Below are positions 6,139-37,303 of a DNA stretch of 56,408 bases, in pieces. Numbering within the stretch: the first letter of the stretch is position 1; the number at the start of each line of letters is the position of its first letter. Where the stretch lies: sequence record SRR2962707_5284; one strand, written 5' to 3'. Below the pieces are notes generated by a model. The model saw nothing but the letters and a program-made list of their open reading frames with translations. It was not told the DNA's origin and did no database searches. The position numbers and the translations under genes were made by a program.

Positions 6139-6141
6139 CGG

Positions 6142-18670: not shown

Positions 18671-18687
18671 GTTCTTTTGAGCTAACC

Positions 18688-18733
18688 ACTGTCTCCAATT
18701 GAAGGCCTGGCTTTCGATTGGGGACAGTTTTTA
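18688..18733 (+). terminator. Rho-independent terminator after the dioxygenase
   Basis: ACTGTCTCCAATTGAA...TTCGATTGGGGACAGT stem followed by a T run. Confidence 0.75.
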
Positions 18734-18750
18734 TTAGTTTAAAAGCGAGC

Positions 18751-19782: not shown

Positions 19783-19845
19783 AATAGGGGTCTTTCTCGA
19801 CAGAGATTGGGCGGCAGTTGCAAGAGGCCGATCCAGCAATAGCCA

Positions 19846-20769: not shown

Positions 20770-20832
20770 CTTCTTTTTTCCGGCTCTTTGCTAACTGATG
20801 TGTCACATTAACGCCTCAGCAGCCATTTCTAC

Positions 20833-20870
20833 ATTGAATTGATTGGATACCAACTATTTGCATTCTCAAT
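20833..20870 (-). promoter_or_regulatory. nod-box-like site upstream of LysR#2-amidohydrolase
   Basis: Minus strand ATT-gagaatgca-AAT-agttggt-ATC-caatcaattc-AAT (9/7/10). Confidence 0.5.
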
Positions 20871-21059
20871 GATTGAAGGTCGAAAAGCCAGGGTGCATCC
20901 TATAGGGAATGGCGCGATCTGAGATGCTTCGCACCTGAAGGAAGCCATTAACTATTTGAATCCTAGTGAAGATATTGCCGCTGGTTTTCCACTTTCCTCG
21001 GCTGGTTGAAGTTAACGTTTTTGGTTCCCTTCGACATAAATTGTCTATTTGGTGCGGCT

Positions 21060-21096
21060 ATCCGTTTCCCGCATGCCTCCCATTCACATTTAAAAT
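21060..21096 (+). promoter_or_regulatory. nod-box-like site upstream of the porin
   Basis: tATC-cgtttcccg-CAT-gcctccc-ATT-cacatttaa-AAT (9/7/9). Confidence 0.6.
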
Positions 21097-21156
21097 TCAA
21101 CTTATCCAGTGGCCTAGTGGATAAAAAGCCATCAAATTTCGAGGAGGAATAACGGG

Positions 21157-22221
21157 ATGAAGAAACTTTGCAGCGCGATAACGTGCGGTGTCATGCTGAT
21201 GCCGGGGTTGGCATATGCTAACCCGAATTTCGGGGGGCAATTGGTAGTTGGCTACGGCGAAGTGGACGGAGTTGGAGACTCCTATGGGATCCTAAGCTTG
21301 AATGCCGAAGAGACTTACACATTTCAGTCTGGCACTAAACTGACTTGGAAAGTTCAGGCCCGCGGGCGGACAGATCAAGATGATATTGGTCTACTTGATA
21401 GCGACAACCTGGATGCGTCTCTGGAGCTTGACCTAGGCAGCGGCGGTAAGCTGGGTATTTCGACTTTCAGTGAGCCTGTACATCAATTCCCTTGGGCCGA
21501 CGGCGAATTGTTCAACCGAGGATCTGTAGGCGTGATGCCGGTGATCCGTAAACGTTATGACGGTGTCGCAGACAGCCAGTTTGACCCAGCCCGCAATAAG
21601 GTCGATCCGGATCTTATCCTGACCTATTCAAACCGGTTCGGTAAGGTCGGATTTGATTTGGTTGCGAACCCGCTGGGCACATGGAATGGTAACGACGAAG
21701 ATGATTTGTTCGGCTCGCCAGATGTTCCAATGGTTGAGGCAAAGTTCACTCTGCCAACTGAAAATGGTATTTACAGCGTTGCGGTCAACGATTTGAAAGA
21801 TGCCGAATTTCAATTGGTCTATCCGATGCGTGATATTGGTCTGACCTTGATTGCACGTCACTCAATCAACGAAGGCGATTGGGATGACAGCCGTACAAAC
21901 TTGATTGCGATGTATCGCGCAAAGAACATGGGTGTCTTTAAGGGCGCTATGTTGGCCCACGCGAGGGACGATAGTGCGACCCGTACAATGCTCAGCCTGA
22001 ATTTCGGTTATGAAGACTTTAGCGTCAAAGTCGCAGGCGACACGGACGGTGATATGGCCATCGAAGGCAGCTATGCCTTTAATGAAAAGACCTCACTGAT
22101 GTTTGGTTGGGATAATGGTCACGACTTTAGGGAGGGCTTCGATGACGCAGCATTCCCGGCACCTGTGTTTGCTCCGGCGCGTGGAAGTGCTTTCGAAGTG
22201 GCGCTTGTCCACAATTTCTAA
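21157..22221 (+). CDS. Outer-membrane porin-like beta-barrel protein
   Basis: Signal peptide ending AYA, amphipathic beta strands, Asp/Gly-rich loops, terminal FEVALVHNF; GAGGAGG RBS. Confidence 0.75.
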   Translation: MKKLCSAITCGVMLMPGLAYANPNFGGQLVVGYGEVDGVGDSYGILSLNAEETYTFQSGTKLTWKVQARGRTDQDDIGLLDSDNLDASLELDLGSGGKLGISTFSEPVHQFPWADGELFNRGSVGVMPVIRKRYDGVADSQFDPARNKVDPDLILTYSNRFGKVGFDLVANPLGTWNGNDEDDLFGSPDVPMVEAKFTLPTENGIYSVAVNDLKDAEFQLVYPMRDIGLTLIARHSINEGDWDDSRTNLIAMYRAKNMGVFKGAMLAHARDDSATRTMLSLNFGYEDFSVKVAGDTDGDMAIEGSYAFNEKTSLMFGWDNGHDFREGFDDAAFPAPVFAPARGSAFEVALVHNF

Positions 22222-22242
22222 AAGCTAGCTGTGACCATATGG

Positions 22243-22286
22243 AAAGCCCCCTGCATCGTTTCCCGTGCGAGGGGGCTTTTTATTTT
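22243..22286. terminator. Bidirectional intrinsic terminator
   Basis: AAAGCCCCCTGCA...TGCGAGGGGGCTTTTTATTTT between convergent genes. Confidence 0.8.
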
Positions 22287-22299
22287 GGAGTGCATGGTT

Positions 22300-23058
22300 C
22301 TAGGTGTCAAAGCCCGGGAACTGACGACGCGCTTTGCGAAGCTGCGCCTGCCACGTGCCCATATTGAACATATGTTTGTCGCTCCAGGTGCCTTCGGCTT
22401 CATTCGCTGCGCGGTCCACGATGGATTGATCGATCTCGTAGGCCTCTATACCACCAGGGCCGATGCCGCTGGCGATCTGTACGGAACAGGCGCGGTTCAG
22501 CATATAGGCGAGGAAATACGCCTCTTTCACTGAGTGCCCCCAGACGATCATACCGTGGCCGCGCAGAAGCGTGACTTGGCTTTCGCTGAAGCATTTCACC
22601 AGTTTCTCGGCTTCCGTGGGGCCGGTCAGGAAGCCTTCATATTCGTGATAAGCGACGTCGCCGATCCAGATGGCCCACTGGTTGTTGCGCACAAGCCCTT
22701 GCTTTTGCATTGACACGCCGATGGTGCTGAAGGAATGGGCGTGGATCACGCATTTTGCCTCGGGGATCGCGTCATAAACGCTTTTATGCATCGGGTAGGA
22801 AAAGCCGTGGGTGCGAGCTTCGGAATTGTAGACTTCCTTGCCCTGAGCATCGAGTAAGTGCAGCGATGAAGCGGTGATCTCCTCAAACATCTCGGCTGGA
22901 TCGTTCATAAGAACCTGCGAGGGGTTGTCAGGCGAACGGGCGGTAAAGTGTTCAAAACACAGATCGGCGCCCCATTCGGCTTCGCCTAAGCGTATGGCGG
23001 CAGCCAAATCAACGCGGGTGTTCCATTCTGCCTCTGAGACGTGCGCTCTCTTTGTCAT
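22300..23058 (-). CDS. Class II aldolase/adducin family protein (possible decarboxylase)
   Basis: EWNTRVDLAAA, FEEITASSL, IHAHS, LLRGHG; start ATG 23058 after GAGGAGG. Confidence 0.88.
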   Translation of the reverse strand: MTKRAHVSEAEWNTRVDLAAAIRLGEAEWGADLCFEHFTARSPDNPSQVLMNDPAEMFEEITASSLHLLDAQGKEVYNSEARTHGFSYPMHKSVYDAIPEAKCVIHAHSFSTIGVSMQKQGLVRNNQWAIWIGDVAYHEYEGFLTGPTEAEKLVKCFSESQVTLLRGHGMIVWGHSVKEAYFLAYMLNRACSVQIASGIGPGGIEAYEIDQSIVDRAANEAEGTWSDKHMFNMGTWQAQLRKARRQFPGFDT

Positions 23059-23161
23059 GTTTCCTCCTCTAATGCCGTGCGCCTGACGGGGCGGGCGGCC
23101 AATTTGATGTGATTTGGGCCGACAGGTATAACGCCCGTCGACCCAGTTCAGATTTGAAACT

Positions 23162-24193
23162 TTAGTCCTTTGGCTCTGGCCAGAGGCCAAAGGCAAGTGG
23201 GCGATCTGGTGTGGGTTCTTGGCGGCAGATGTTGGTTTGCTTGCCAAGCCCCGTGACCGCGCCAACGATCACGTCGCCATCCTGCAAGAAGCGCCCGTGG
23301 TGCTTGCCGTTTCCGGGAGGTGAACCAGACAAGATCATGTCACCGGGCGTCAGGTTGATACGCTCAGACAAATAAGAAACCATTTGCTGATGGCTAAATA
23401 TCATGTCGTTGCACGGCCAATCCTGCATGACCTTGTCATTAACGCTCAGAGTGATGCGGGCGGTGTCCACATCATACATCTGGCGTGGAACGATGAAGGG
23501 GCCTGCGATTTTGAACGTCGGCTGGTGTTTGGAAATCCAATCGAATTGGAAGTGAATATCGGTACGGCGGAAGATGTCTACCGTGCCGATGTCATTGACC
23601 GCACAATAGCCCGCAATCAGGCCATCGGCCTCTTCCACTGAGGCATAGCGAGCAGACTTTCCGATCACACAGGCCAGTTCCATTTCCCAATCGGGTTCGT
23701 CGCCAAGAACGGGTAACACTAGATCATTATTCGCACCAACAAGCGACGAGTGCAGACCAGTCCATAGGAAAGGCGTGCCGGTGCGCTGGCGTTCTTCCAT
23801 GGCTTCATAGTTGCGCTGGTAGAACTCTTCATCCGTTTCACCCGGTTTGCGATTGTGCTGGTTGAACTTGTTCTTGGTCAGCATTTCCGCGACGTGTTGT
23901 TTGTAGTTCGATCCTGCACAAAGAAGGTTAGGGTGGGCAACCGGCTTGAGCGGTTCAACCTCGGAAAACTCGAAGTCCACGCGCTCTGTTGCGGCAAGAT
24001 CGACCAAGACGTCAAAGTTGCGGTCCCAATCGTCAAAAATGTGGTGCGTGTCATAGAATTTGTCAGAAAGATCGATGGACTGGCCATCGGCCCGGACAAG
24101 CCCGGGGACAGGTTTGCCGTCGCGCGAAAATGTTCCGACACCGAATGTCCCGTCAAACAGGCCCGTCGCGGGATTGATGGTTTTGTTCGTCAT
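23162..24193 (-). CDS. FAH family protein #2 (paralog of #1)
   Basis: CAGSNY, PDWEMEL, VNDIG, GSPPGNG; start ATG 24193 after GGGAGG. Confidence 0.9.
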   Translation of the reverse strand: MTNKTINPATGLFDGTFGVGTFSRDGKPVPGLVRADGQSIDLSDKFYDTHHIFDDWDRNFDVLVDLAATERVDFEFSEVEPLKPVAHPNLLCAGSNYKQHVAEMLTKNKFNQHNRKPGETDEEFYQRNYEAMEERQRTGTPFLWTGLHSSLVGANNDLVLPVLGDEPDWEMELACVIGKSARYASVEEADGLIAGYCAVNDIGTVDIFRRTDIHFQFDWISKHQPTFKIAGPFIVPRQMYDVDTARITLSVNDKVMQDWPCNDMIFSHQQMVSYLSERINLTPGDMILSGSPPGNGKHHGRFLQDGDVIVGAVTGLGKQTNICRQEPTPDRPLAFGLWPEPKD

Positions 24194-24265
24194 GTTGAGG
24201 ACTTCCTCCCAAGTGTAATTCCGCGCTATAATACTAGGGTACATAACAGTCAGCTATTCGCATTC

Positions 24266-24892
24266 ATGTCAGAGCCGAATCCACCGCTAACCCCCCGAAA
24301 ACGCCCAACTCAAGCGCGTTCCAAGCAATTGGTTGATACCATTCTGCAAGGGGCTATTCGCGTTTTGGAAGACCAGGGGCGGGCCAATTTTTCCACGACA
24401 GAGATCGCCGAAACAGCCGGGGTTTCTATTGGGTCTCTGTACCAATATTTCGGGTCCAACGATGCCATCATGGCCGAACTTGTTTTGCGGGAACATGAAA
24501 GGCTTTTGGCCCGTACGAATGAAGCTGCAGAAACGACAGAAGGCCTAGAGGTCGAAGATGCGGTACGCATCTTGATCCATGCCCTTTCGCGGGACAAACC
24601 CACGAGACGGATAGCGCGTATTCTGGAAGAGGAAGAAGAGCGGCTCCCACGCACACCCGATTTGATCGAGGTGGAAGCCGCCATTCGCGCAAACTCGGAC
24701 GCCTTTTTTCAACGTCTCCTTGCTGGGTATATGCCCGATGAAAGGATCGCGATTGTGACGCTGGACGTCTTTAAGATTGCGCGCGGTATGTTTGATGGTC
24801 CGCAGCCCGCCGTAGATCCCGAAGGACCCGACGCGCTGCCGGAACGTATTGTGCGGGTGATCTTGGGCTATTTCGACCGAATGATGCCTTAG
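24266..24892 (+). CDS. TetR/AcrR family regulator
   Basis: PRKRPTQARSKQLVDTIL...FSTTEIAETAGVSIGSLYQYF; start ATG 24266. Confidence 0.9.
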   Translation: MSEPNPPLTPRKRPTQARSKQLVDTILQGAIRVLEDQGRANFSTTEIAETAGVSIGSLYQYFGSNDAIMAELVLREHERLLARTNEAAETTEGLEVEDAVRILIHALSRDKPTRRIARILEEEEERLPRTPDLIEVEAAIRANSDAFFQRLLAGYMPDERIAIVTLDVFKIARGMFDGPQPAVDPEGPDALPERIVRVILGYFDRMMP

Positions 24893-25851
24893 CCTGCGAC
24901 AACTTTCTGGTCGATTGGACCAAAGATAGGTTGCCCATCGCGGGTTTTGCATTCCATGCGGATATGGTCTCCAAAGCTCATGTAGGGAGTCTTTGGAGCG
25001 CCTTCATCCAACAGCTCAATGCCCCGGCGTTCTGCAAGGCAGGATGACCCGATTTCGCGGAAATTCTCATTGGACACGGTACCAGAGCCAAGAACCGTTC
25101 CGGCGCATAGCGTGCGAGAGTACGCAGCATGCGCCAGTAACTCATCAAAACCATAGGTCATATGGTACCCTTCGGCATTGCCGAAACGGTCGCCATTCAG
25201 ATCGACGGTCAGGGGCAAATCTACGCGCGCATCACGCCATGCATCGCCTAGTTCATCCGGAGTTACTGCAACCGGGGCCACAGAACAGGCTGGCTTAGCG
25301 TGGATCCAGCCGAACCCGGTTTTCATTTCAACCGGGGCCAAAGAGCGTAATGACCAGTCATTGATCTGCAAGAGCAGGCGTATATGACTACGTGCATCCG
25401 CAGCGCTGGTTCCCATCGGGACTTCGTCGCAAATCAGTCCGAACTCGCCCTCGAAATCAATGCCGTCTGCTTCCGATGGAAAGGGGGCATCGCTGGTAGA
25501 TGGCAGGAATTGATGCGACATGCCTTGATACATCAATGGGCGGCCTTTTGGGTTTGGCTCCAGCTTGAAAACAGTCTGCATCAGGTCGCCGTGACTGTCA
25601 TAGGCAGAGCCATCCAGCCATTGCCAAGCCCGCGGCAACGGTGCCAACGCGATTGCTGGATCAAAGGAGGCGCCATTGCCAGCGTTCAAGTCGGCATATT
25701 GAATTTCAAGCGTGGGCGTTAGCGCGTCCCAATTTTCCATCAAAGCCTGAAGGGTTTCCACGTTCTTTGCAGGTTCAGACCGTTTCAAATCGCGGCTGAC
25801 AACATGCAGACGTCCATCTGGGGTGCCGTTGGGAAGTGTTGCGAATTTCAT
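24889..25851 (-). CDS. FAH family protein #3 (FdeI-like)
   Basis: MKFATL...DGRL.VVSRDL, PLPRAWQWLDGSAY, IDFEGE, NDWSLR, GSGTVSN. Confidence 0.9.
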   Translation of the reverse strand: MKFATLPNGTPDGRLHVVSRDLKRSEPAKNVETLQALMENWDALTPTLEIQYADLNAGNGASFDPAIALAPLPRAWQWLDGSAYDSHGDLMQTVFKLEPNPKGRPLMYQGMSHQFLPSTSDAPFPSEADGIDFEGEFGLICDEVPMGTSAADARSHIRLLLQINDWSLRSLAPVEMKTGFGWIHAKPACSVAPVAVTPDELGDAWRDARVDLPLTVDLNGDRFGNAEGYHMTYGFDELLAHAAYSRTLCAGTVLGSGTVSNENFREIGSSCLAERRGIELLDEGAPKTPYMSFGDHIRMECKTRDGQPIFGPIDQKVVAG

Positions 25852-26747
25852 GTTAGGTCTCCGTGTTTCAGGGCATTTTCAATAAGACTGGACAGCGCAG
25901 TATCCGGGGCAAAACCGGCCTTTACACTGTCGTCAACGTCAACGGTCTGCGCTTGGCCAAACAAGCGCATGGTGTCGGGATCTGGTGCGTAGATTATGTT
26001 CGAGGAGCTTTCAGGAAAGGCTGCGCGCAATGCCTGTTCTAGATCGGTAAAGCGCACCGCCGTCATCGGCAATGTCAAACTTCGATTAGGGCCAAGGTCC
26101 GGCGACAGGGCCGCGTGCATAAAGTTGGCCGCGACATTGCCGACCGATGAGAGTAGCGTTTCGCCTTCCTCAGACACTGGCAGAGTGATGTCATATCCAT
26201 CCCTGAGGGCGATAAACACTTCGGACAGGAACGAGGACTTCAGCGCAGCGCCAGTTCCGGCGCGTGCCACAATCCCACCGGGGCGTAGGGAAATTCCATC
26301 AACTTCACCGCGGCGGGTCGCTGTTTCCAAGGCAATCTCGATCATCGCTTTGTGGCTTCCATAAATCATCGTAGGCGCGCGTTCTGACGTTGTCTCACCC
26401 AGCACAGCGAGAGAGGAGGCAAATACAAAACGAGTTTCCGGGCTGCAGGTTTCGATCAATGCTAATGTCGCATCAAGGTTTACGGCCCTTGCGGCTGCCG
26501 GGTCTGTTTCGGCAGCGCCCCCAAGGATCGCGGCAAGATGAATAACTGCGTCGGCCATCCCAATGGCCTGCCGCAAAACCGGATCCGTTAAATCGCATGT
26601 CAGGGATGTTATCTTTGGATGGGTTACCTCAATAGGAACGAGGTCGCAGGCAACAACATGGCCGATGGCTTCATCGTCCAGTGCGGCCTGTAACACCGCG
26701 CGTCCCAAGAACCCGGCCGCCCCTGTGATTACGACATGTGTGCTCAT
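25848..26747 (-). CDS. NAD-dependent epimerase/dehydratase (FdeJ-like)
   Basis: ITGAAGFLG, HLAA, FASSLAV, YGSHK; start 26747 overlaps the cupin stop. Confidence 0.88.
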   Translation of the reverse strand: MSTHVVITGAAGFLGRAVLQAALDDEAIGHVVACDLVPIEVTHPKITSLTCDLTDPVLRQAIGMADAVIHLAAILGGAAETDPAAARAVNLDATLALIETCSPETRFVFASSLAVLGETTSERAPTMIYGSHKAMIEIALETATRRGEVDGISLRPGGIVARAGTGAALKSSFLSEVFIALRDGYDITLPVSEEGETLLSSVGNVAANFMHAALSPDLGPNRSLTLPMTAVRFTDLEQALRAAFPESSSNIIYAPDPDTMRLFGQAQTVDVDDSVKAGFAPDTALSSLIENALKHGDLT

Positions 26748-27355
26748 CTGTCTGAGGCAATCCGCGCATCTTGCTTTGCCTGAGCGGCTTGCAGTGCCGA
26801 ACAAAAAGTCCCGTCAGTGAGGACAAAAAGCATCCGGCAAACGGCGTCGGATCTGTTGGCCCATGCATGAATTGTACCTCGTTGAACCACGACATCACCA
26901 GGGCGTAAAACCACTTCATCCTCGTCCAATAGCAAAACGATTTCGCCAGCGATCACCACGCCGTAATCCACGCTTTCAGTGCGATGCATCAATGGATGAC
27001 GTCCCGCCTTGGTGTGTCTTGCATTCTCGGCAAGACCAACGGCTTCAAAAAGGGCGCGCGCTTGGTCCTTGTCGAATTCAGGACCATCCTTGCCTTCTGG
27101 TGGGATGTCTACAAAACGAATGATGGTGCCATTTGAGGGGGGCGCAGTGTCACGATACACATCGGTTGGGTCCGGTTCAGTAAAATCAACCGGCATCGGC
27201 GTTTGATTCGTTGACCAAACTTCGTGAAAAGCCAAGCCCGGTTGCCCGGGCGGTCGTGTGACATGGGGCAGGGGGCCGTTTTGGGAAACGACGGCCTTGC
27301 CATCTTTGTCATGAGCCGTGACTACGCGACGAATATCCGGAAGATTTACTTCCAC
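26744..27355 (-). CDS. Cupin domain protein (FdeH-like)
   Basis: IRRVVTAHD..GKAV, MHRTESVDYG, GDVVVQRGTIHAWAN; GTG start after GAAGGA. Confidence 0.88.
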   Translation of the reverse strand: MEVNLPDIRRVVTAHDKDGKAVVSQNGPLPHVTRPPGQPGLAFHEVWSTNQTPMPVDFTEPDPTDVYRDTAPPSNGTIIRFVDIPPEGKDGPEFDKDQARALFEAVGLAENARHTKAGRHPLMHRTESVDYGVVIAGEIVLLLDEDEVVLRPGDVVVQRGTIHAWANRSDAVCRMLFVLTDGTFCSALQAAQAKQDARIASDR

Positions 27356-27360
27356 GGTGT

Positions 27361-28002
27361 CTATCCTTCTTGCTGCGCAAAAAGCTCTGCTTCTTTTTTC
27401 AGTGCACGTTGGACAGCCGGACGTTGCTCCATCCGTTCCGCATGTGCGGCCCAATTGGGCAATACACTGACGTCATAATCGACGCTGAGCAGGCGGTACC
27501 AGATCCAATAAATATAGGCGTCCTGGATGGACCATTCATTGCCATACCACCAAGGGCCTTTTGCCAAAGTGTCCTCGACGATTTTGGCCATCATCACCAT
27601 GCCGGCATGGCCCTTGTCGCTGACGGATTTCTGGGCATCCTCGCCGTCGACAATAAACATAGGCATCCGCATGCGTGTGACCAACGGATGCAGAGTGTCG
27701 GCACAAAACGCGAGGTTCGCTGTAATCTTGGCATCTGCAAATGGGTCGGACGTCTGTGGTAACAAAGTTGGGAATTTCGTACCCAGATATCGGGCAATTG
27801 CCACGTTCTGGGTAAGAGGGCCATCCGGTGTGACCAGAAGCGGGACTTTACCGGCGGGGTTCATGGCCAAATAGTCTGGTCGCTTGTGTTCGCCTTTCAT
27901 AAGGCGCACTAGCTTGGTGTCAAAGTTAGCGCCGGCTTCTTCCAGCGCTATAAGGGGAACCCGGGCACAAGTGCCCGGCGCAATATAAAGAGTATAGCTC
28001 AA
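27361..28002 (-). CDS. Glutathione S-transferase (beta-class-like)
   Basis: LYIAPGTCA, MNPAGKVPLL, LTQNVAIARY, RPAVQRAL; TTG start overlapping the hydrolase stop. Confidence 0.88.
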   Translation of the reverse strand: MSYTLYIAPGTCARVPLIALEEAGANFDTKLVRLMKGEHKRPDYLAMNPAGKVPLLVTPDGPLTQNVAIARYLGTKFPTLLPQTSDPFADAKITANLAFCADTLHPLVTRMRMPMFIVDGEDAQKSVSDKGHAGMVMMAKIVEDTLAKGPWWYGNEWSIQDAYIYWIWYRLLSVDYDVSVLPNWAAHAERMEQRPAVQRALKKEAELFAQQEG

Positions 28003-29159
28003 GCCAGTCGGCCCCCAAGAGTTTCCGCAAACCAATCCGCGATAAAGCTACGTCCAAAACTCATATTGTCGGCGCCGACATGTTCCACGCCTCCCTCACG
28101 GTCTGTGAAAATACGTAGCTCGCGACGCGGTGAATTGGTCAACTGGTCGTAGCTTTGCTGAGCGTAATCGACGCTGATCTGACGATCGTTTGCGCCATGG
28201 GTCACAAGAAACGGTACTTTGATCTTTTCCATCTGACCGTTCAGATGCATGCCCTTGGATTTTTCCAGAAAATCTTCCTGGTCCTCGGCCCCAAACACCC
28301 AGTGGACGTGCTTCCAATAATGCGGCACCGGGTTTTCACCCTCGCGCTTCATGCGTTTTTGCTGCACTTCGGCCCAATTGTGGTTGGCCCCCCACACAGC
28401 GCCAGATGCAAAGCGCGGTTCATTTGCGCAAACACGGGGCGCGTAATAACCGCCAAGGGAAATGCCTGTTACGCCAATGCGATCTGCATCCACATCGTCT
28501 CGTGCGGCCAGCCATTCATAGACCGGTGTGCCCCATTTCTCGGACTCCACTTCGACCGGCATGTTCTGCAAGCGCAAGCTTTCACCGGTTCCCGGCTGAT
28601 CGACGCACAATGTGGAAATGCCACGTTTCGCCAGTTCCTGAGGAAGCCGCGACCAATACAGCAGCTCTTTGTTGCTATCGAGGCCATTGAGGTAAACCAC
28701 CGCTGGGGCGGGCCCATCTACGCCAATCGCCCGGGTGTAAATCACCGGAATCGTCTTGTCCCCGTACGGGATTTCGAAACGGGTTGCGTCCTCGCCTGAT
28801 TGTTGGGTTCCCAAAAGGAAGTTCTCGAGACCCTTCTTAAAAGTCGACATGCGGTTTTCGCTGCCATGAGCCTGCATGCGTTCTGCTGTGAGGTAATATA
28901 GCGCCGCGCGTTGACGCTTTGGCCCGGCAGACAAGAACCGACCTTTGGCTTCGTCTTCTTCGGCGAGCCCGACAAGCTTATCGGCAACCTTCATCCATTC
29001 TTGCATGAACTCTACAGTGCCGGCGTCTTCACCAGATTCTGCCTTGGCCAGCAAAGGCTGGCACATGTCCATGATTTCGCCAAGCTCAGCGCCGCTGGCC
29101 ATCGCAATTGATACTGAAAGATTCCAAACATAGTTTGGAAAATAGTCGAACATAGCCAT
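27999..29159 (-). CDS. Alpha/beta hydrolase, 2,6-dihydroxypseudooxynicotine-hydrolase/FdeB-like (possible C-C hydrolase)
   Basis: MFDYFPNYVWNLS, NGLDSNKE, DQPGTGE, GISLGGYY nucleophile elbow, EGGVEHV. Confidence 0.88.
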   Translation of the reverse strand: MAMFDYFPNYVWNLSVSIAMASGAELGEIMDMCQPLLAKAESGEDAGTVEFMQEWMKVADKLVGLAEEDEAKGRFLSAGPKRQRAALYYLTAERMQAHGSENRMSTFKKGLENFLLGTQQSGEDATRFEIPYGDKTIPVIYTRAIGVDGPAPAVVYLNGLDSNKELLYWSRLPQELAKRGISTLCVDQPGTGESLRLQNMPVEVESEKWGTPVYEWLAARDDVDADRIGVTGISLGGYYAPRVCANEPRFASGAVWGANHNWAEVQQKRMKREGENPVPHYWKHVHWVFGAEDQEDFLEKSKGMHLNGQMEKIKVPFLVTHGANDRQISVDYAQQSYDQLTNSPRRELRIFTDREGGVEHVGADNMSFGRSFIADWFAETLGGRLA

Positions 29160-29184
29160 GAGAGTTGGCCCCTTGATAATTAGA

Positions 29185-30306
29185 TTAGATTGGTTCGCAC
29201 ATCATGCCGATGGTTTGCCCATTCAGCGCACCGATATCGAAAGGTGGGATCTTGCCCATCTGCATTTCGCCAATGCGAATTGAGCTTTTTGCAACATGTG
29301 AGACGCGCGGCATCCGGCGTGTGCGATAAGCTTCGAATGCCTCTTCCGGTGCGGCTTTGGAGAGCTCCTCGGCCAACACAACCGCGTCCTCGATTGCCAT
29401 TCCAGCCCCCTGGGCCAGATGCGGCGTGGACGCATGAACCGCGTCACCAAGCAATACGACGCGGCCTTTATGCCAATCGCCTTCGAGCAGAATGGTTTCC
29501 ATCGGGCGCGCAACGACACCTTCGTCATCAGTTATCTGATCAATCAATGCCGCGATCTGGGGAGGGGGCATTTTGCGGGCTCGATCGCGCAAAGCTGCGG
29601 CAGCGCCTTCAACCGGCAAGGGTGTTTTGTCGGGCTCTTGTGATACAAGGAACATGTACATCAGGTCGGTTGTCATCGGGACAAGGCCTGCGTTCAACGG
29701 ACCTGCAAACACATGAATGCCATCCAGATCTGCCGGGCGTGGGAAGTTATACCGCCAAACCCATTGCCCTGTATATTCAGGGGCAGGTGCCTCTGGCATA
29801 ATTGTCTGGCGTGTCTGCGAGAAGATCCCGTCCGCGCCAATGACGATGTCATAACGCCCTGTAGTGGCGTCCGAGAAAGTGACGTCTACTCCTTCACCAT
29901 CATCGTTCATCTCAGTAACCGTGGTGCCAAGGCGTACTTCAGCACCAGCCTTTTTGACACCTTCCGCAAGAACCAGCTGAAGATCCGGGCGGCGAATTCC
30001 TGCATTCGAAGGATACTCAGGCCCCGCCAGGCGTGGTGTTTCAAATTTTGCTTCCTGGACGCCCCCTGGGCCCACAAACAATGTCGTGCTGTCAAAACCA
30101 AAGGAATGAGACAGGTAGTTGTCCAGAATTCCCAACTGGTTCATCACCCGGACAACATTCATCTGCTGAATGATGCCCACGCCATAGACGCTCCAGTCGT
30201 TGGAACGTTCAATGATGTCGACCTGAATTCCCTTTTGGCGCAGCGCGATACCCGCTGTAAGTCCGCCAATTCCCCCGCCGATGATGAGTGCTGTTTTAGC
30301 TTGCAT
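29185..30306 (-). CDS. FAD-dependent aromatic monooxygenase (FdeE-like)
   Basis: IIGGGIGG, VYGVGIIQ, GADGIFS, LLGDAVHA, LAQGAGMAIED; start ATG 30306 after GGGAGG. Confidence 0.92.
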   Translation of the reverse strand: MQAKTALIIGGGIGGLTAGIALRQKGIQVDIIERSNDWSVYGVGIIQQMNVVRVMNQLGILDNYLSHSFGFDSTTLFVGPGGVQEAKFETPRLAGPEYPSNAGIRRPDLQLVLAEGVKKAGAEVRLGTTVTEMNDDGEGVDVTFSDATTGRYDIVIGADGIFSQTRQTIMPEAPAPEYTGQWVWRYNFPRPADLDGIHVFAGPLNAGLVPMTTDLMYMFLVSQEPDKTPLPVEGAAAALRDRARKMPPPQIAALIDQITDDEGVVARPMETILLEGDWHKGRVVLLGDAVHASTPHLAQGAGMAIEDAVVLAEELSKAAPEEAFEAYRTRRMPRVSHVAKSSIRIGEMQMGKIPPFDIGALNGQTIGMMCEPI

Positions 30307-30360
30307 GTAGAGACCTCCCATGTTTGTCGCTAAGCTAAAACTCAATTGAGTATTTTAAAA

Positions 30361-30397
30361 ATTGAAAGGCACAATTGAACGTATCGGTTTCGTGGAT
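30361..30397 (-). promoter_or_regulatory. nod-box-like site upstream of the monooxygenase operon
   Basis: Minus strand tATC-cacgaaacc-GAT-acgttca-ATT-gtgcctttc-AAT-tttta; very close to the rhizobial nod-box architecture. Confidence 0.75.
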
Positions 30398-30399
30398 AC

Positions 30400-31305
30400 C
30401 TACCTGAATTCTTTGGTTGCCTCCAAAAATACGTTCCGTAGCCATGCGATCCCAGGGTCATTGTCACGATAGGCATGGCTTTGCAGCATTTGGCTCAGCT
30501 TGGGCATTTCAACGGGAAGGGGATAAATCGACAACTCGCCTTGAGGAGCAACAAGTTCGGCCAGTCTTTTGTGTACCGTTGCGATCCGATTCGTCCCAAT
30601 CACAAGATGTGGCAACGTGGAAAACGAAAACGTGCGCACGTCAACATTTCGCTTAACGCCAGAGTTTGCCAAGATTGTTGTCTCAACCGATTTTTCCGAA
30701 TTCGGCGGGACCATCACGGCGTGAGGCGCGGAACAATAAATGGCTTCGGTCATTTTGACATTACCATATTTCCCGTTTTTCCACGCAACGACGACGTATT
30801 CATCCTCAAACAATTGGGTGGCAGGGTGTTCTTTAGACAAGAATATGTCTGGAGAAATCAGAAAGTCGATCTCGCCACGTTCCAGCAATGCATGAGGCAA
30901 GTCCGTCTGAGGGCGTAAATTCAATCGGATGGTGGCGTTTTGTTCGTTCAGGAAACGCAACACGTTCGGCAGGATGACCCGCAACGAATAATCTGACAAA
31001 AGGATGTTGAAGACCCGGGTCGAGACGTCGGGACGGAATTCAGGTTGCGACTCAATGGTGGCTTCGATCCGCACAAGAATGTCGCGAATGGCTGGGCGCA
31101 TCGATTCTGCGAGCGGTGTGATCTCCATGCGGCGGCCAACCTGCACCAAGAGCGGGTCGTCAAAGTATTCACGCAACCGTGTCAGCGCGTTGGACATTGC
31201 GGATTGGCTCATGAACATTTTGTCGGCTGCAGCCGACACCGACCGAAGTTCAATCATGTGGTCAAGAGCCACCAAAAGGTTGAGATCGAGTTTTTTGAAA
31301 CGCAT
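30400..31305 (-). CDS. NodD/FdeR-like LysR regulator #3
   Basis: MRFKKLDLNLLVALDHMIELRSVSAAADKMFMSQSAMSNALTRLREYFDDPLL; divergent from the VOC operon. Confidence 0.92.
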   Translation of the reverse strand: MRFKKLDLNLLVALDHMIELRSVSAAADKMFMSQSAMSNALTRLREYFDDPLLVQVGRRMEITPLAESMRPAIRDILVRIEATIESQPEFRPDVSTRVFNILLSDYSLRVILPNVLRFLNEQNATIRLNLRPQTDLPHALLERGEIDFLISPDIFLSKEHPATQLFEDEYVVVAWKNGKYGNVKMTEAIYCSAPHAVMVPPNSEKSVETTILANSGVKRNVDVRTFSFSTLPHLVIGTNRIATVHKRLAELVAPQGELSIYPLPVEMPKLSQMLQSHAYRDNDPGIAWLRNVFLEATKEFR

Positions 31306-31332
31306 ACGAGCATGCTAGCTCAAGCCACTGCC

Positions 31333-31369
31333 ATTTGTCCAATCAATGCATGGCATTTAATCTTACAAT
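31333..31369 (+). promoter_or_regulatory. nod-box-like site upstream of the VOC-Rieske-cyclase-TRAP operon
   Basis: cATT-tgtccaatc-AAT-gcatggc-ATT-taatcttac-AAT-tttt (9/7/9). Confidence 0.7.
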
Positions 31370-31424
31370 TTTTCGATAGGTTACCAATCGTTAAACATAG
31401 GCTGCAAACAGGGAGTGATTGCAT

Positions 31425-32357
31425 ATGCGAATTATTGGGCCAGACGAATTGGTATTCGGCGTTGACAGCATTGACGACTGCGCCAAATACCTGTCAGATT
31501 TCGGTTTGACGGATGTTGGGGACGGCCGGTTTGAAGCGTTGGATAAGACTTCGCTAACTATTCGTTCAATTGATGATCCTTCTCTTCCAGCGCCTCTGAA
31601 GACAGCCACAAAGCTCCGTTTGACTATTTGGGGCGTCGAAGATCAGGCCGCTCTGGATGAAATTGAAGCTGAGCTATCCAAAGACAGAGACGTGCGAAAA
31701 GATGAAGCCGGGACGCTTTATACCCGCGATGACACCGGTTTCGAAATTGCCTTTCGCGTCACGCAGCGCATCGAGCTGGATATGCCTGCCGAAATGATCA
31801 ACTCGCCAGGGGCCAAGCCGGGCCGCCCGACGAATCAGGTTGGGTCAAACCAGGACGCCGAAGCAAAACCGCGCACACTAAGCCACATCGTGTATTTTGT
31901 TCCTGACATGGAAGTTATGGCGAACTTCTACATTGAGCGCCTGGGATTTGTGATCACTGATAAGTTTAAAAACACTGGTCCATTCTTGCGTCCGCAAGCC
32001 AACAAAGACCACCACGTCTTGTTCATGCTGCAAACGCCTGACTACATGCAGGGCCTCGAACACTTGGCCTTTCACATGCAGGGACCGACCGAGCTGATGC
32101 TGGCAGGTTCACGCATGGTTCAAAAGGGATATGAAAGCTTCTGGGGACCAGGTCGGCATAAGTTCGGATCGAACTGGTTCTGGTATTTCAACTCTCCCTT
32201 GGGCGCCCACATGGAATACGATGCTGACATGGATCATCATGACGGCGATTGGGTCGAACGCGAAGAAGTCATGAGCAAAGAGGCTGCTCAGCTGTTCTTG
32301 TTTGAGAATGTCGAAAGATGGGCACCGGGTGGTGGTCCTCCTCCCGGTAAGAAGTAG
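31425..32357 (+). CDS. VOC family extradiol dioxygenase (FdeC-like)
   Basis: LSHIVYF, DHHVLF, LEHLAFH, WGPGRHKFGSNWFWYF, EYDADMD. Confidence 0.9.
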   Translation: MRIIGPDELVFGVDSIDDCAKYLSDFGLTDVGDGRFEALDKTSLTIRSIDDPSLPAPLKTATKLRLTIWGVEDQAALDEIEAELSKDRDVRKDEAGTLYTRDDTGFEIAFRVTQRIELDMPAEMINSPGAKPGRPTNQVGSNQDAEAKPRTLSHIVYFVPDMEVMANFYIERLGFVITDKFKNTGPFLRPQANKDHHVLFMLQTPDYMQGLEHLAFHMQGPTELMLAGSRMVQKGYESFWGPGRHKFGSNWFWYFNSPLGAHMEYDADMDHHDGDWVEREEVMSKEAAQLFLFENVERWAPGGGPPPGKK

Positions 32358-32366
32358 CGCGATCTT

Positions 32367-32702
32367 GTGAGCACATTTCTATGCGCATTAGAGGACGTCC
32401 CGGATGGAGGAAGCAAAGGCATCCTACCAAATGAACGAGGACGTGATCAGGGATTCCTTGTTCGCAAGGGGTCCCAGGTATTTGCCTATGTGAACAACTG
32501 TCCGCACTATGATCGGGCACCTCTTGGCTGGAAAAAGGACGCGTTCCTAAACGGTTCCGGACAAAAAATTATGTGCTCCTCTCACGGCGCACTCTTCCGG
32601 ATTGAAGATGGTGTTTGTGAAATTGGACCCTGCATTGGGCAATCACTGGAACCAATCGAAGTAAAAGTGATCGATGGGCAAATTATGCGTGTCGAAAAAT
32701 AG
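32367..32702 (+). CDS. Rieske (2Fe-2S) ferredoxin (FdeD-like)
   Basis: NNCPH...IMCSSHGALF...GPC. Confidence 0.9.
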   Translation: MSTFLCALEDVPDGGSKGILPNERGRDQGFLVRKGSQVFAYVNNCPHYDRAPLGWKKDAFLNGSGQKIMCSSHGALFRIEDGVCEIGPCIGQSLEPIEVKVIDGQIMRVEK

Positions 32703-32758
32703 GAGCCCATTTGGGCCCCCAAAAATAGAAGAATGTCAAAAGACGGAGAATAGAAAGC

Positions 32759-33532
32759 ATGGCCAGACAAATTATCGACCTTGCGGTATGCTTGACCGAT
32801 CAGATTGCGTCTGATCCTCCCGGATTGGGGCCGTCGATCACCTATCTTGATCACGCAGCTGGTGCGGAAGAGTTTTCCCAAATGTTCGGCGTGCCTCCCA
32901 GTGAATTTCGCGATTCGGCAGGGGCAGCGGTAGAGCGTATGACGCTTTCCACACACAACGGTACTCATATGGATGCGCCTTGGCATTACCACCCAACAAT
33001 GGATGGCGGTGCTCGAGCCATAACCATTGATGAGGTGCCGCTCGAGTGGTGCATGGGACCAGGCGTCAAGCTGGATTTCCGTGATCGTCCGAACGGACAC
33101 ACGATTTCTGCGGCAGAGATCGAGGCTGAATTGGCGCGGATCAATCACACGTTGCAGGAAGGCGATATCGTTCTTGTGAATACGGCTGCCGGCGCACGTT
33201 ATGGCGAAGATGATTATGTCGCCTCCGGGTGCGGGATTGGCCGTGAGGCAACATTGTATCTAACCGAACGCGGTATGAAAGTCTGCGGCACAGACGCATG
33301 GAGCTGGGATGCTCCGCTCATGGTGCAGGCCAACACCGCGCGCGAAACCGGCGATTGGTCGATTTTCTGGGAAGGCCATAAGGCCGGAGCAGACACGGTT
33401 TACTGCCACATGGAAAAATTGGGAAACTTGGACAAGCTGCCTTCAACTGGGTTCGAAGTTATTGCTCTACCTGTCAAAGTTGAAAAAGGATCTGCCGGAT
33501 GGTGCAGACCCGTGGCCATCATAAACAGCTGA
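32759..33532 (+). CDS. Cyclase family (kynurenine formamidase-like) metal hydrolase (FdeG-like)
   Basis: THNGTHMDAPWH, GTDAWSWD, WEGHKAG, HMEKL. Confidence 0.9.
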   Translation: MARQIIDLAVCLTDQIASDPPGLGPSITYLDHAAGAEEFSQMFGVPPSEFRDSAGAAVERMTLSTHNGTHMDAPWHYHPTMDGGARAITIDEVPLEWCMGPGVKLDFRDRPNGHTISAAEIEAELARINHTLQEGDIVLVNTAAGARYGEDDYVASGCGIGREATLYLTERGMKVCGTDAWSWDAPLMVQANTARETGDWSIFWEGHKAGADTVYCHMEKLGNLDKLPSTGFEVIALPVKVEKGSAGWCRPVAIINS

Positions 33533-33559
33533 TTAGCTGGCAACTCGGGAGGAGTTGAA

Positions 33560-35485
33560 ATGGAAAGTACTCAAACAAGCGCGCCTGTGCGATTTGGGTG
33601 GATTAAGAGCATTACAGGGGTGATTTCGATCATCTCTATTTCTGCTGCTTTGCTCGGCGCACTGGCCATTGTTTTGGATGTATTGGGTCGCTGGCTTTTT
33701 GGCGTATCCGTCTTTGCGTTGAACGAAATCATGTCGACAATTTTTGCCGTGGCCATTGCACTGACTTTGCCGGCGGGCGCAGCATCGCGGGTCAATCTTA
33801 AGGTAGATTTATTGTCGCATCTTACAGGTCCAAGGTTGTCGGCTTGGTTAAAGGTGGTCGGGGCGGTAATGCTCGGTGTGTTCTTTTCGATCCTGGCCTG
33901 GAGATTGTGGGGATTGGCGGTACGATATGACTCGCAGGGTCGTGCGTCTGCGCTTTTGCAGCTGCCTCTTGCGTCTACGTATTACGCCATCTCAATTGCC
34001 ATTGGCGCAGCGGCTGTCGTGCAGGTTTTCAACTTCATTGAGGATTTCAGCGACGCGCTACGCGAAAAACAGGAAGAAAAGACGCATCCGATTGTTTGGG
34101 GCATTGTGGCGGCCTTCTTAGCGGTGGTTCTCGGTGTTGCTACTTGGGTATTTACCGATTTTGACAGCTATTCCGAATTCATCTTCGTTAATCCCGGTAC
34201 AGCAGCCATCGTTGGTTTCATTCTTCTTTGGCTCGGCGTGCTATTGCAGCTGCCCTTGGCCACTGTGACCGCGATGATTGGTGTCTGCGGCTCCATTGCC
34301 TTCATCGGTGGTAGCGCGTCTATGAACACCTTTGCCGGTGACGCCGCCGCCTTTTTACGGAACGAACAGGTCGCGACCTTGCCGATGTTCCTTATCATGG
34401 GCGCATTTGCTGTTGTTGCGGGCGTGTCGGACGATCTCTTCCGTCTGGGACAAGCCTTGTTGGGCCGGTTCCGGGGCGGTTTGTCCTATGCGACTATTGC
34501 TGGCTGCGCTGGCTTTGGGGCGGTCTCTGGCAACTCTATCGCGACCTCGGCAACGTTCGGTCGGATGGCGCTACCTGCGATGAAGAAGGCCGGATATGCG
34601 TCGACGCTCTCTACCGCGAGTGTTGCCGCTGGCGGGACTTTGGGGGCCTTGGTGCCACCGTCCGGGGTTATCATCTTGTTCGCTTTGCTGACAGAAACCT
34701 CGATTGGCGACCTGTTTGTTGCGGCGATGATCCCAGCACTCTTGGCTGTGTTACTGTACTTCGGAACCGTATTCTGCATTGTCCGCCTGAACCCTGACGC
34801 GGTCCCCCCTGCCGAAAGCGGGAGCATGTCTGACTTGATTCCTGCGCTGCGTGGATCATTCCCCGTGGTTCTGATGTTTGCTGTCGTGATTGGTGGTCTG
34901 TATGGCGGTCTGTTTACGGCAACGGAAAGTGCGGCGGTTGGCGCGATTAGTGCTGTGGTACTTGCGTTCATGCGGGGCCGTCTGAACCGTTCGTCTATTT
35001 TGCAGGTCTTTGCGGAAACCACAGCAACCACCGCCATGATCTATGCTTTGATTTTCGGCGGCCTTGTCTTCGCCTTCTTTATCAACCTTGGTGGCGCACC
35101 AGATTTGGTTAGCGCTTGGATTGCCAGCATTGATGCGCGCCCCTTGTTCATTCTAATCCTGCTCATTGTGATCTACCTGCTTTTGGGCTCGATCATGGAC
35201 AGCTTTGGCGTCATGATCATCACTCTGCCGGTTGTCACACCGATCATTCTCGATTTGGGCTATGATATGTTGTTCTGGGGCATTCTGATGCTTGTGGTGG
35301 TTGAAATTGGTATGATCACACCTCCGTTTGGCATGAACCTGTTCATTATCAAAAGCATCGATCCCAACGTGCGTCTTGGCACAGTGATGAAGGGTGTTGT
35401 GCCCTTTATCATCGCGGACTTCATTAAGATCGTTGCTCTTGTCGCTTTTCCCGCGTTGGCTCTCTGGCTTCCGTCGACGATGTAG
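33560..35485 (+). CDS. Fused TRAP small+large permease (DctQ-DctM)
   Basis: N-terminal four-TM DctQ-like part (DVLGRWLF...VDLL) followed by DctM motifs AGGTLGALVPPS, FTATESA, GMITPPFGMNLF. Confidence 0.9.
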   Translation: MESTQTSAPVRFGWIKSITGVISIISISAALLGALAIVLDVLGRWLFGVSVFALNEIMSTIFAVAIALTLPAGAASRVNLKVDLLSHLTGPRLSAWLKVVGAVMLGVFFSILAWRLWGLAVRYDSQGRASALLQLPLASTYYAISIAIGAAAVVQVFNFIEDFSDALREKQEEKTHPIVWGIVAAFLAVVLGVATWVFTDFDSYSEFIFVNPGTAAIVGFILLWLGVLLQLPLATVTAMIGVCGSIAFIGGSASMNTFAGDAAAFLRNEQVATLPMFLIMGAFAVVAGVSDDLFRLGQALLGRFRGGLSYATIAGCAGFGAVSGNSIATSATFGRMALPAMKKAGYASTLSTASVAAGGTLGALVPPSGVIILFALLTETSIGDLFVAAMIPALLAVLLYFGTVFCIVRLNPDAVPPAESGSMSDLIPALRGSFPVVLMFAVVIGGLYGGLFTATESAAVGAISAVVLAFMRGRLNRSSILQVFAETTATTAMIYALIFGGLVFAFFINLGGAPDLVSAWIASIDARPLFILILLIVIYLLLGSIMDSFGVMIITLPVVTPIILDLGYDMLFWGILMLVVVEIGMITPPFGMNLFIIKSIDPNVRLGTVMKGVVPFIIADFIKIVALVAFPALALWLPSTM

Positions 35486-35516: not shown

Positions 35517-35553
35517 GGCCGACCAGAGAGATCTGGTCGGCCTTCTTGTTTTG
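35517..35553 (+). terminator. Intrinsic terminator after dctQM
   Basis: GGCCGACCAGA-gaga-TCTGGTCGGCC followed by TTCTTGTTTT. Confidence 0.75.
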
Positions 35554-36008: not shown

Positions 36009-37025
36009 TTATTCGCCTGTCATTTTGCGGGCCTCTGCCATGGCCGCTTCCCATTGTTCGATCAATTCAGCACCATTTGGGACACGCTTGTCAAAACTAG
36101 CTTTGAGCTGTGGACCAAGGGCTTCTTTCATGGCGTTCAGCTCTTCTGGGTCAATTTCATTGATCGTGTGACCGTCTGTTGCCTTTACAAAGGCTTCGCC
36201 GTCGGCTTCCCACTGATCGACGATTGCGCCCATCTGGCGTGTCGTGTCACAGCCTGAATTGGCATCGAGCACGGCACGCGCTTCGTCTGACAGAGCTTCG
36301 TAGCGTTCGCGCAGCATAAAGACCATACCAGTGGCGCCGCCTAACGGAACGTTCATGTGGTCGGTTGTAACTTCTTGCAAGTTAAACGCCGGGAACGCGG
36401 TGAAAGTCATAAAACTACCGTCCGCCGTGCCACGCTGCAAAGCTTGATAATGCTCTGGTACAACAATCGACAGCGGTGTGCCGCCATAGGCCGAAACGAT
36501 TTGCGATGCGGTTGGGCTGCCCACCATGATCTTCTTACCTTCAAGCGCTGTCATATCTGTGACAGGGCTATCCTTTAGGTGAACAGATGATTGCGGGAAG
36601 GGCACAAAGAACAAAGGCATATAGTCGCTAAGCTCTTCATCAAACGCGCCACTTTCATAAAGCGTACAGAACGCAATCGCGTTAGCTTCTGCAGAACCGG
36701 AGACGAAGGGAACGGTTGAAATCAAGGACCGTGGGAAACGACCGGGGTTAAAAACAAGCATTCCCCAGGCAATTTGGACGATATCGTCGGTCACGCGGTC
36801 AACATAGTTGCTTGAATTCACCAACATTTGTCCGTGACGCACAGCGATCGTCAGCTCATCACCGCCTTCGGCGTTAACCTTGTCTGCCCACGGAATAAAG
36901 ACACGTTTGTTGATCGGGTGAATGATCACGTTTCCCGTCCCAAAGGTGAGCCGTTCTGCTGCAGCGGCTATTGGCGAAAGTGCGGTCGCACCAGCCAACA
37001 ATAAAGCCGTTAGTTTTTTACGCAT
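36009..37025 (-). CDS. dctP: TRAP transporter substrate-binding protein
   Basis: Signal peptide; HPINKRVFIPWA, GRFPRS, YQALQRGTADG, YEALSDEARAVLD; GGGAGG RBS. Confidence 0.88.
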   Translation of the reverse strand: MRKKLTALLLAGATALSPIAAAAERLTFGTGNVIIHPINKRVFIPWADKVNAEGGDELTIAVRHGQMLVNSSNYVDRVTDDIVQIAWGMLVFNPGRFPRSLISTVPFVSGSAEANAIAFCTLYESGAFDEELSDYMPLFFVPFPQSSVHLKDSPVTDMTALEGKKIMVGSPTASQIVSAYGGTPLSIVVPEHYQALQRGTADGSFMTFTAFPAFNLQEVTTDHMNVPLGGATGMVFMLRERYEALSDEARAVLDANSGCDTTRQMGAIVDQWEADGEAFVKATDGHTINEIDPEELNAMKEALGPQLKASFDKRVPNGAELIEQWEAAMAEARKMTGE

Positions 37026-37103
37026 GAGTTCCTCCCAAGAAATACATTAGAGACCACAGCTGGCCGATGAGCTTTAACATACTCTGAAGAGTGGTGTTTC
37101 GGA

Positions 37104-37141
37104 ATTGAATTGATTTAATGCACGATATCGATCCGATGAAT
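37104..37141 (-). promoter_or_regulatory. nod-box-like site upstream of dctP
   Basis: Minus strand cATT-catcggatc-GAT-atcgtgc-ATT-aaatcaattc-AAT (9/7/10). Confidence 0.65.
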
Positions 37142-37162
37142 GACTAAGGTTGAGGCTCAACT

Positions 37163-37199
37163 GTTCATATTATCAATGATTGGTATTCGATTATTTCGT
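37163..37199 (+). promoter_or_regulatory. Degenerate nod-box-like site upstream of the secreted protein
   Basis: GTT-catattatc-AAT-gattggt-ATT-cgattattt-CGT-tttt. Confidence 0.4.
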
Positions 37200-37303
37200 T
37201 TTTGGAATAGTATGACCAACCGTATGATTGTCTCACGAAAAGGGAAGGGCGGTCTCGGTCACCGACACGACATTGTCCAGATCCCGTTGTGGAGGAGAAA
37301 AGA

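Follow-up and report, generated by a model that had tools for sequence, protein, structure and literature searches.

Which aromatic compound is taken apart by the products of a ring-cleavage gene cluster gathered around a LysR regulator, and how far does the gene set reach? The question is raised by a stretch of DNA of 56,408 nt (the window; sequence record SRR2962707_5284), in which a sequence-only reading had recognized ten open reading frames between positions 24889 and 33532 as a flavonoid A-ring degradation set of the fde type in a probable roseobacter. The account we prefer is a wider one; homology and gene context favour, by no large measure, a regulon under an FdeR-type LysR by which a sulfated 7-hydroxy-benzopyranone polyphenol would be taken up, desulfated, and oxidatively opened at its ring; the most probable substrate is the sulfate of a flavone or flavonol. 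What would be new for a cluster of the fde family is the co-regulated S4-type arylsulfatase together with an importer of the TRAP type; were it not for the link to the sulfatase, the cluster would simply extend fde to a new habitat.

All ten reading frames are present and open and belong to the families that had been named (Pfam and the list of open reading frames); the start codons were picked from the sequences at the gene junctions. The LysR gene (30400–31305, minus strand; Pfam HTH_1 and LysR_substrate) is divergent, as had been proposed, from a plus-strand run (31425–35485) encoding a VOC-fold extradiol dioxygenase (31425–32357; Pfam Glyoxalase), a stand-alone Rieske ferredoxin (32367–32702), a cyclase-family metal hydrolase (32759–33532; Pfam Cyclase; kin of isatin hydrolase and kynurenine formamidase by PDB matches) and, 27 nt further, a fused TRAP membrane subunit DctQM (33560–35485; Pfam DctQ and DctM). 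The monooxygenase operon, also thought divergent, lies downstream of LysR on the same strand with a predicted box of its own; from 30306 down to 24889 it comprises genes for a group A flavin monooxygenase (29185–30306; NCBIfam PRK06847 above cut-off), an alpha/beta hydrolase (27999–29159), a glutathione S-transferase (GST; 27361–28002; Pfam GST_N and bacterial GST matches in the PDB), the start of which overlaps the hydrolase stop, a cupin (26744–27355; Pfam Cupin_2), an accessory NAD-dependent epimerase/dehydrogenase (25848–26747; Pfam Epimerase), and an FAH-family enzyme (24889–25851; Pfam FAA_hydrolase). The same core is found in 20 related loci, defined by a monooxygenase at least 58% identical, so the arrangement is not due to chance; VOC is encoded in all 20, Rieske, cyclase, and TRAP QM in 19 each, hydrolase and FAH in 18 each, the TRAP solute-binding protein (TRAP-P) in 12, a metallo-beta-lactamase-fold protein (MBL) in 11 (several loci end before its expected position), the cupin in nine, epimerase and GST in eight each, a spondin-like protein in seven, and a porin in two.

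Kinship with fde was judged by way of proxies for the Herbaspirillum seropedicae proteins, namely L058, a cluster on a Burkholderia anthina plasmid in which the fde order is complete and an EthD gene is added, and P0240, a protein labelled FdeE in its source; the matches listed for the fde-type queries included no protein named as from Herbaspirillum. Nine proteins of the window match L058 at 33–56% identity (LysR 46%, at the fdeR position; hydrolase 53%; VOC 56%; Rieske 47%; monooxygenase 39%; cyclase 56%; cupin 56%; FAH 55%, at the fdeI position; epimerase 33%), and the monooxygenase shares 40% identity with P0240. Because of these matches, fde-like chemistry, that is, ortho-hydroxylation, extradiol cleavage, and C–C hydrolysis, can be predicted with high confidence, and the fde kinship claimed before stands. 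The values fall in a range similar to that between Ifc and Fde proteins (35–66% in the accessible part of the supplement of PMC11069340). Fig. S5 of the same paper, as far as it is accessible, gives FdeA as an unassigned meta-pathway protein, FdeB as hydrolase, FdeC as glyoxalase, FdeD as 2Fe-2S protein, FdeE as monooxygenase, FdeF as MFS transporter, FdeG as cyclase, FdeH as cupin, FdeI as FAH, and FdeJ as epimerase. Counterparts of FdeR, B, C, D, E, G, H, I, and J of H. seropedicae SmR1 (via L058) occur in the window, as do the adjacency of VOC and Rieske genes and the divergent FdeR-type LysR. In contrast to fde, the gene order differs and is divided among several promoters; by comparison with L058, the single-operon order fdeABCDEFGHIJ is not kept. 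No protein of the window matched the “transporter” or the MFS protein of L058, and there is no MFS gene among the reading frames of the cluster; instead of FdeA and FdeF there are the TRAP importer, with DctQM standing where fde has its MFS gene, and a different porin. Further differences are the added GST, spondin-like, and arylsulfatase genes and a monooxygenase outside the FdeE-labelled clade. The ifc cluster of Variovorax sp. V35, known here by its description in the accessible part of PMC11069340, has its enzyme families in common with the window, and IfcA is about as distant from FdeE as the window monooxygenase is; unlike the window, ifc has no match for cyclase or epimerase (Fig. S5). 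Thus, the window holds a real fde-family pathway, which would work like fde but, given the monooxygenase clade, the gene order, and the mode of transport, is not a strict member. The regulator had been called NodD-like; none of its 20 plasmid matches at E ≤ 1e-60 is labelled nodD, and the best ones adjoin fdeC-type VOC genes. In a literature search conducted mostly outside subscription journals, no fde-type cluster of roseobacters and no sulfatase linked to an fde-type cluster was found.

How far the gene set reaches is indicated by a conserved predicted operator in the LysR–VOC spacer (31332–31380, plus strand; aligned in 20 relatives), with the motif CATT-N9-AATG ... CAT ... CAATTT ... ATG. 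A position weight matrix was trained solely on the LysR–VOC boxes of 19 of the 20 relatives (L074, where the anchor was not found, was dropped, and the window excluded). Applied to the window, it ranked the sites at 31332 (VOC), 39480 (MBL), 37162 (spondin-like), 30350 (monooxygenase), 37094 (TRAP-P), and 20823/20824 (a second LysR gene) in this order. When tested against the AT-rich background by dinucleotide shuffles (300 per region), six of 31 upstream regions of the window stood at 0/300, those of VOC, MBL, TRAP-P, the monooxygenase (box at 30350–30398, minus strand), the spondin-like gene, and the paralogous LysR. Among the relatives, the box precedes the MBL gene in 9/10 (L002, where the gene is at the locus edge, was excluded), TRAP-P in 9/9, the spondin-like gene in 4/4, and the monooxygenase gene in 10/10 cases; it was absent before the internal operon genes (hydrolase 0/8, cyclase 0/9, TRAP QM 0/9). 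In L071, the sole relative without a box before the MBL gene, this gene is placed within the monooxygenase operon. Co-regulation of MBL with the cluster is therefore, as far as predicted boxes allow, very likely. The unit, which had been taken to end at 33532, continues to 39418 through the TRAP, spondin-like, and arylsulfatase-like genes; the importer and the arylsulfatase, which share the LysR box, had been missed. The region's best sigma70-like match has its -35 hexamer overlapping the MBL box (39480–39528, minus strand); scans for sigma70 sites and terminators gave no more sites than in shuffles. The adjacent gene for a siderophore-interacting protein (39605–40381) is not supported as a member of the regulon, having no box (35/300 shuffles) and occurring in none of the 20 relatives within the fetched stretches. 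As a separate observation, a flavoprotein of this type adjoins S4-type MBL genes in four places, the window, L027, L030, and L082.

The MBL gene (38522–39418, minus strand) encodes a protein of 298 amino acids (mostly 315–350 in relatives), which matches PDB 8GYG, an arylsulfatase of Pseudoalteromonas atlantica, from end to end (E 3.6e-65; RNase Z follows at 2e-12). Its predicted structure (pLDDT 94) superimposes on 8GYG with a TM of 0.94, an rmsd of 1.7 Å, and 36% identity, other structures reaching at most 0.81, and H65, H67, and D69 of the zinc motif HxHxDH are invariant in 60/60 aligned sequences. Assignment as RNase Z or GntH was rejected; for both, the NCBIfam scores fall well short of the cut-off, and structurally the protein is nearer to 8GYG. 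Sequence and structural model together make it quite likely that the protein is a sulfatase. SulfAtlas delimits family S4 by at least 30% identity to AtsA of Pseudoalteromonas carrageenovora (P28607), while the comparison made here is with 8GYG. With these two S4 arylsulfatases the window protein shares the ElaC-like MBL fold and HxHxDH; in contrast to them, it has no signal peptide, starting right at the catalytic domain, and is encoded in an aromatic ring-cleavage regulon. More distant cluster-linked copies do have a signal peptide.

The association of such proteins with fde-type clusters recurs. Among 401 genomes of the family to which genome G002 belongs, the fdeC-type VOC is encoded in 13, MBL in eight, and both in seven, 2.9–5.5 kb apart (Fisher p 4e-11; 1e-9 without the centre genome; the test treats related clusters, which are inherited blocks, as independent). 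The eighth MBL gene (L082; G602:C1:1174000-1193999) lies among S1 sulfatase, S3 alkylsulfatase, and TRAP genes; the island consists of TAXI-type TRAP, S1 sulfatase, signal-less S4-type MBL, siderophore-interacting protein, S3 alkylsulfatase, TRAP, and GST genes. Of the seven best metagenome loci retrieved with MBL (at least 37% identity), three have an fde-type cluster, one a cluster-type GST on a short contig, one another aromatic cluster, and two nothing of the kind; the 73 weaker metagenome loci contain no cluster, with an adjacent FAH gene in two. Eight of ten plasmid matches were examined, and MBL was part of a full cluster in three, of a partial one in two, and elsewhere in three. One of the full clusters with MBL is that of the soil organism Novosphingobium resinovorum HR1a, on which no paper was among those listed. 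Alloyangia, Paracoccus, Gammaproteobacteria, and Novosphingobium have fde-type clusters with which distinct MBL clades are associated. A marine-only link was ruled out by the soil and rhizosphere Novosphingobium carriers. Two neighbourhoods may be mentioned here: on the Croceicoccus marinus plasmid L164, genes for GH3, GH2, and uronate catabolism border a LysR–TonB–MBL–GST–cupin–FAH array, a hint that glycosides or glucuronides are handled as well as sulfates, and in L027 a gammaproteobacterial cluster containing two MBL genes has as neighbours (13195–15417) a Rieske oxygenase of the vanillate O-demethylase type and an FAD hydroxylase, which would be in keeping with methoxylated flavones, for instance diosmetin.

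The TRAP solute-binding protein (36009–37025, minus strand; predicted box 37094–37142, minus strand) has its best PDB matches in 5IGA, 5I5P, and 7NRR, which bind aromatic acids. In the alignment, a methionine is opposite their carboxylate-binding arginine, and neither the window protein nor any of 11 close copies has an arginine at this position; the replacement of this residue argues for a predicted ligand other than a carboxylate. A hairpin with terminator-like features on both strands (35517–35542; pattern match alone) separates the convergent TRAP genes. The spondin-like gene (37304–37828, plus strand; box 37162–37210, plus strand) encodes a putative secreted protein, its feature match to Spondin_N (0.83) being a lead only. 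An outer-membrane porin-like protein (21157–22221, plus strand; no Pfam match) probably belongs to the unit and is a possible stand-in for FdeA: in L007 and L009, genes for homologues with 55–58% identity follow the FAH gene immediately, and the porin-like gene of the window has a weak box (2/300 shuffles).

From homology and gene context, the following course can be envisaged. The intact aryl sulfate would be imported by the TRAP system and the phenol freed by the cytoplasmic S4 arylsulfatase. That desulfation would come first is suggested by IfcA, which is inactive on 7-O-methylated or glycosylated isoflavones (PMC11069340), so a substituent at this oxygen would need to be removed. The flavin monooxygenase, a presumed ortho-hydroxylase of phenolic rings with the GxGxxG, DG, and GD motifs present, would then add a hydroxyl group (at C8 in flavonoids) to give a catechol. 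The ring would be opened by the VOC dioxygenase (FdeC/IfcB-like; metal ligands H156, H215, and E266 invariant in 44/44 aligned sequences), with the Rieske ferredoxin (CxH..CxxH kept) maintaining its activity. A C–C bond of the cleavage product would be cut by the alpha/beta hydrolase, by sequence kin of the C–C-cleaving DHPON hydrolase, Ayg1p, and AntI (PDB 8QD7 and 2JBW at E ~1e-19), in which S232+2 of the G-x-S-x-G motif as well as D and H are invariant in 54/54 aligned sequences. Finally, the cupin and/or GST, the cyclase (HxGTHxDxPxH kept), the epimerase, and the FAH-family enzyme, which probably hydrolyzes a late 1,3-dicarbonyl acid, would open the pyranone to give small acids and the B-ring aromatic, which might be degraded by products of neighbouring genes. 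The catalytic motifs of the cluster enzymes are intact in the alignments. The cupin resembles FdeH and IfcD, the latter of which converts a 2-hydroxypyran-4-one intermediate (PMC11069340).

The monooxygenase bears on the question of which polyphenol enters this route. In a quick IQ-TREE run (60 rows; FdeE represented by proxies), the window enzyme falls into a Rhodobacterales-dominated clade (support 99), the sister group of which comprises sphingomonad, Brevundimonas, and gammaproteobacterial enzymes (support 97), while L058 and P0240 lie in a separate FdeE-labelled clade (support 98). IfcA, only 36% identical to FdeE, accepts solely isoflavone aglycones (PMC11069340); an enzyme similarly far from FdeE thus has another substrate range, and the distance of the window enzyme leaves its substrate unfixed. 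Of the flavonoid degradation claimed by the sequence-only reading, the kinship with fde holds, while a flavonoid substrate is not established for this separate marine clade; from the sequences, we consider a flavonoid proper only slightly favoured.

The strongest competitor, though clearly less probable, is the same chemistry acting on a different aryl sulfate of the resorcinol or phloroglucinol type, for example that of a hydroxycoumarin, chromone, xanthone, or hydroxybenzophenone, or of a small phlorotannin from algae. Sulfated phlorotannins are produced by brown algae, and the relatives of the cluster come from varied marine records, none of them labelled as seagrass. In its favour are also the separate clade of the monooxygenase, the 36% identity that already divides FdeE from the isoflavone-specific IfcA, and the reference S4 enzyme, AtsA, which in the accessible part of PMC5066984 is defined on a synthetic substrate, a coumarin 7-sulfate. 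However, both characterized members of the monooxygenase family are active on flavonoids; FdeE by itself hydroxylated 17 out of 49 compounds, every one of the 17 a flavonoid and apigenin, luteolin, and diosmetin among them (PMC11303751, accessible part), and the set for handling pyranones, that is, hydrolase, cupin, cyclase, and FAH, is retained.

Improbable is an fde-type pathway that simply degrades flavonoid aglycones, in which MBL would be another co-regulated hydrolase (a lactonase or phosphoesterase) or a bystander. It would account for the six of 13 cluster genomes without MBL, for the terrestrial fde-ordered clusters which lack it within the fetched stretches, and for 401 Burkholderiales genomes with the VOC in three and MBL in none, and NCBIfam gives MBL nothing but the below-cut-off RNase Z and GntH matches. 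Yet 8GYG is by far the structure most similar to the protein, the only relative sampled outside a cluster sits among other sulfatases, and the MBL gene of the window has the regulon box. A cluster for N-heterocycle catabolism of the pyridine or nicotine type is hardly credible: although the top solved structures are 6-hydroxynicotinate 3-monooxygenase, DHPON hydrolase, and isatin hydrolase, these matches are weak (E 1e-27 to 1e-9) and far worse than the 33–56% identity of nine genes to fde-type proteins, the Ifc hydrolase is equally weakly like DHPON hydrolase (PMC11069340), and a pattern of low Fde identity with best matches to alkaloid or pyridine pathways was looked for and not found.

Returning to the sulfated flavone or flavonol, the best named candidates are the 7-sulfates of apigenin, luteolin, and diosmetin, because FdeE hydroxylates their aglycones and they are major surface phenolics of the leaf of Zostera marina (PMC6389981, accessible part). 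That these seagrass compounds specifically are the substrate is a tentative proposal. Equally tentative is the broader view that goes with it, an undescribed marine pathway for the three seagrass sulfates, with polyphenol sulfates as the natural substrate of S4 enzymes, which fde-type clusters would have recruited repeatedly, the roseobacters having a cytoplasmic form plus TRAP for the intact ester and other carriers signal-peptide forms with TonB receptors or MFS transporters. Eelgrass defends its surface mainly with sulfated phenolics according to the accessible part of PMC6389981, and the literature search, mostly without subscription journals, found no bacterial route for their breakdown; for such a route the regulon supplies identified enzymes and a predicted operator, and carriers of it are in culture. 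For the S4 arylsulfatases, a family described from a synthetic substrate in the SulfAtlas paper, it suggests a role in nature, and it adds a new clade of monooxygenases to those of interest for regioselective hydroxylation.

Several points weigh against the sulfated-flavonoid account. MBL folds are promiscuous, and no seagrass pointer was found in the record titles of the named relatives. The link to MBL in soil and rhizosphere Novosphingobium means that it is no marine signature; the 6/13 VOC-bearing genomes without an MBL match make desulfation optional. In the Fisher test, related clusters are counted as if they were independent. The missing arginine of TRAP-P speaks against a carboxylate and gives no pointer to a sulfate. 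The monooxygenase lies outside the FdeE-labelled clade (in a quick tree with proxies), and the literature search found no characterized member of its own clade. S4 activity, finally, is known from a synthetic aryl sulfate (PMC5066984, accessible part). Apart from this, five marine Rhodobacterales loci (L020, L022, L025, L081, and L170) have clusters with an FdeE-clade monooxygenase, accompanied in 4/5 by a signal-peptide S4-type MBL; they are the better candidates for true marine flavonoid degraders.

The GST had been regarded as an addition, but it recurs in 8/20 relatives, which rules out a strain-specific acquisition, and nearly alternates with the cupin: seven relatives have GST only, eight the cupin only, one both, and four neither (Fisher p 0.028, uncorrected for kinship). 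It is also found in gammaproteobacterial and Novosphingobium clusters (14/55 clusters overall), and a PGxC motif, by which we assume it to be a beta-class-like GST, is kept in 13 cluster copies. The GST is thus a recurring accessory module. It may catalyze a glutathione-dependent isomerization or ring-opening step parallel to the cupin; alternatively, it might quench reactive oxidation products of catechols. The Rieske gene lies directly 3′ of the fdeC-type VOC gene in 40/45 loci, three of which have no monooxygenase gene in the locus, and was absent from 13/13 clusters using the other type of VOC. Since the ferredoxin tracks this dioxygenase and purified FdeE works in vitro, it would be the partner or reactivator of the VOC enzyme, a role for which XylT is presumably the analogue.

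A roseobacter as host, as initially proposed, is suggested by the closest named relatives (Flavimaricola, Pacificibacter, Loktanella, Pelagimonas, and Pseudoprimorskyibacter). The hydrolase query returned 51 loci out of 165 candidate stretches, the closest being from marine Rhodobacterales with 77–90% identity. A non-cluster gene of the window is present in 119/121 genomes of the family of genome G002 (best 70–71% identity; family only, with no outgroup), which fits such a host. The G+C content of the cluster (50–55%) is like that of the remaining window, and an exact look-up of eight window proteins in a protein collection gave no identical entry.

The cluster is flanked by a second aromatic block (11162–24892), which might act on the B-ring product or on some related substrate; it contains genes for a LysR, an FAH-family protein, a broken monooxygenase, a kinase-like protein, an enolase, a 2-hydroxyacid dehydrogenase, a catechol 2,3-dioxygenase-like VOC (17675–18670), an amidohydrolase, another LysR, the porin, a class II aldolase, FAH, and TetR. 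This second-block LysR (19846–20769) is 67% identical to the cluster LysR and has a similar box. The order FAH–TetR–FAH is also found in L024 and amidohydrolase–FAH–VOC in L035. The second FdeE-like monooxygenase gene (13229–14357, plus strand; 34% identity to the main one) has a frameshift near 13385–13390, such that the first 53 codons, which encode the FAD motif, run into a stop and the remainder is in another frame; it is either a pseudogene or an assembly error. Further away are LysR, ABC transporter, and D-amino-acid/opine-oxidase-like genes (1248–10439) and, at 40770–44997, a stand-alone adenylation–carrier–thioesterase protein gene convergent with that of a cytochrome P450.

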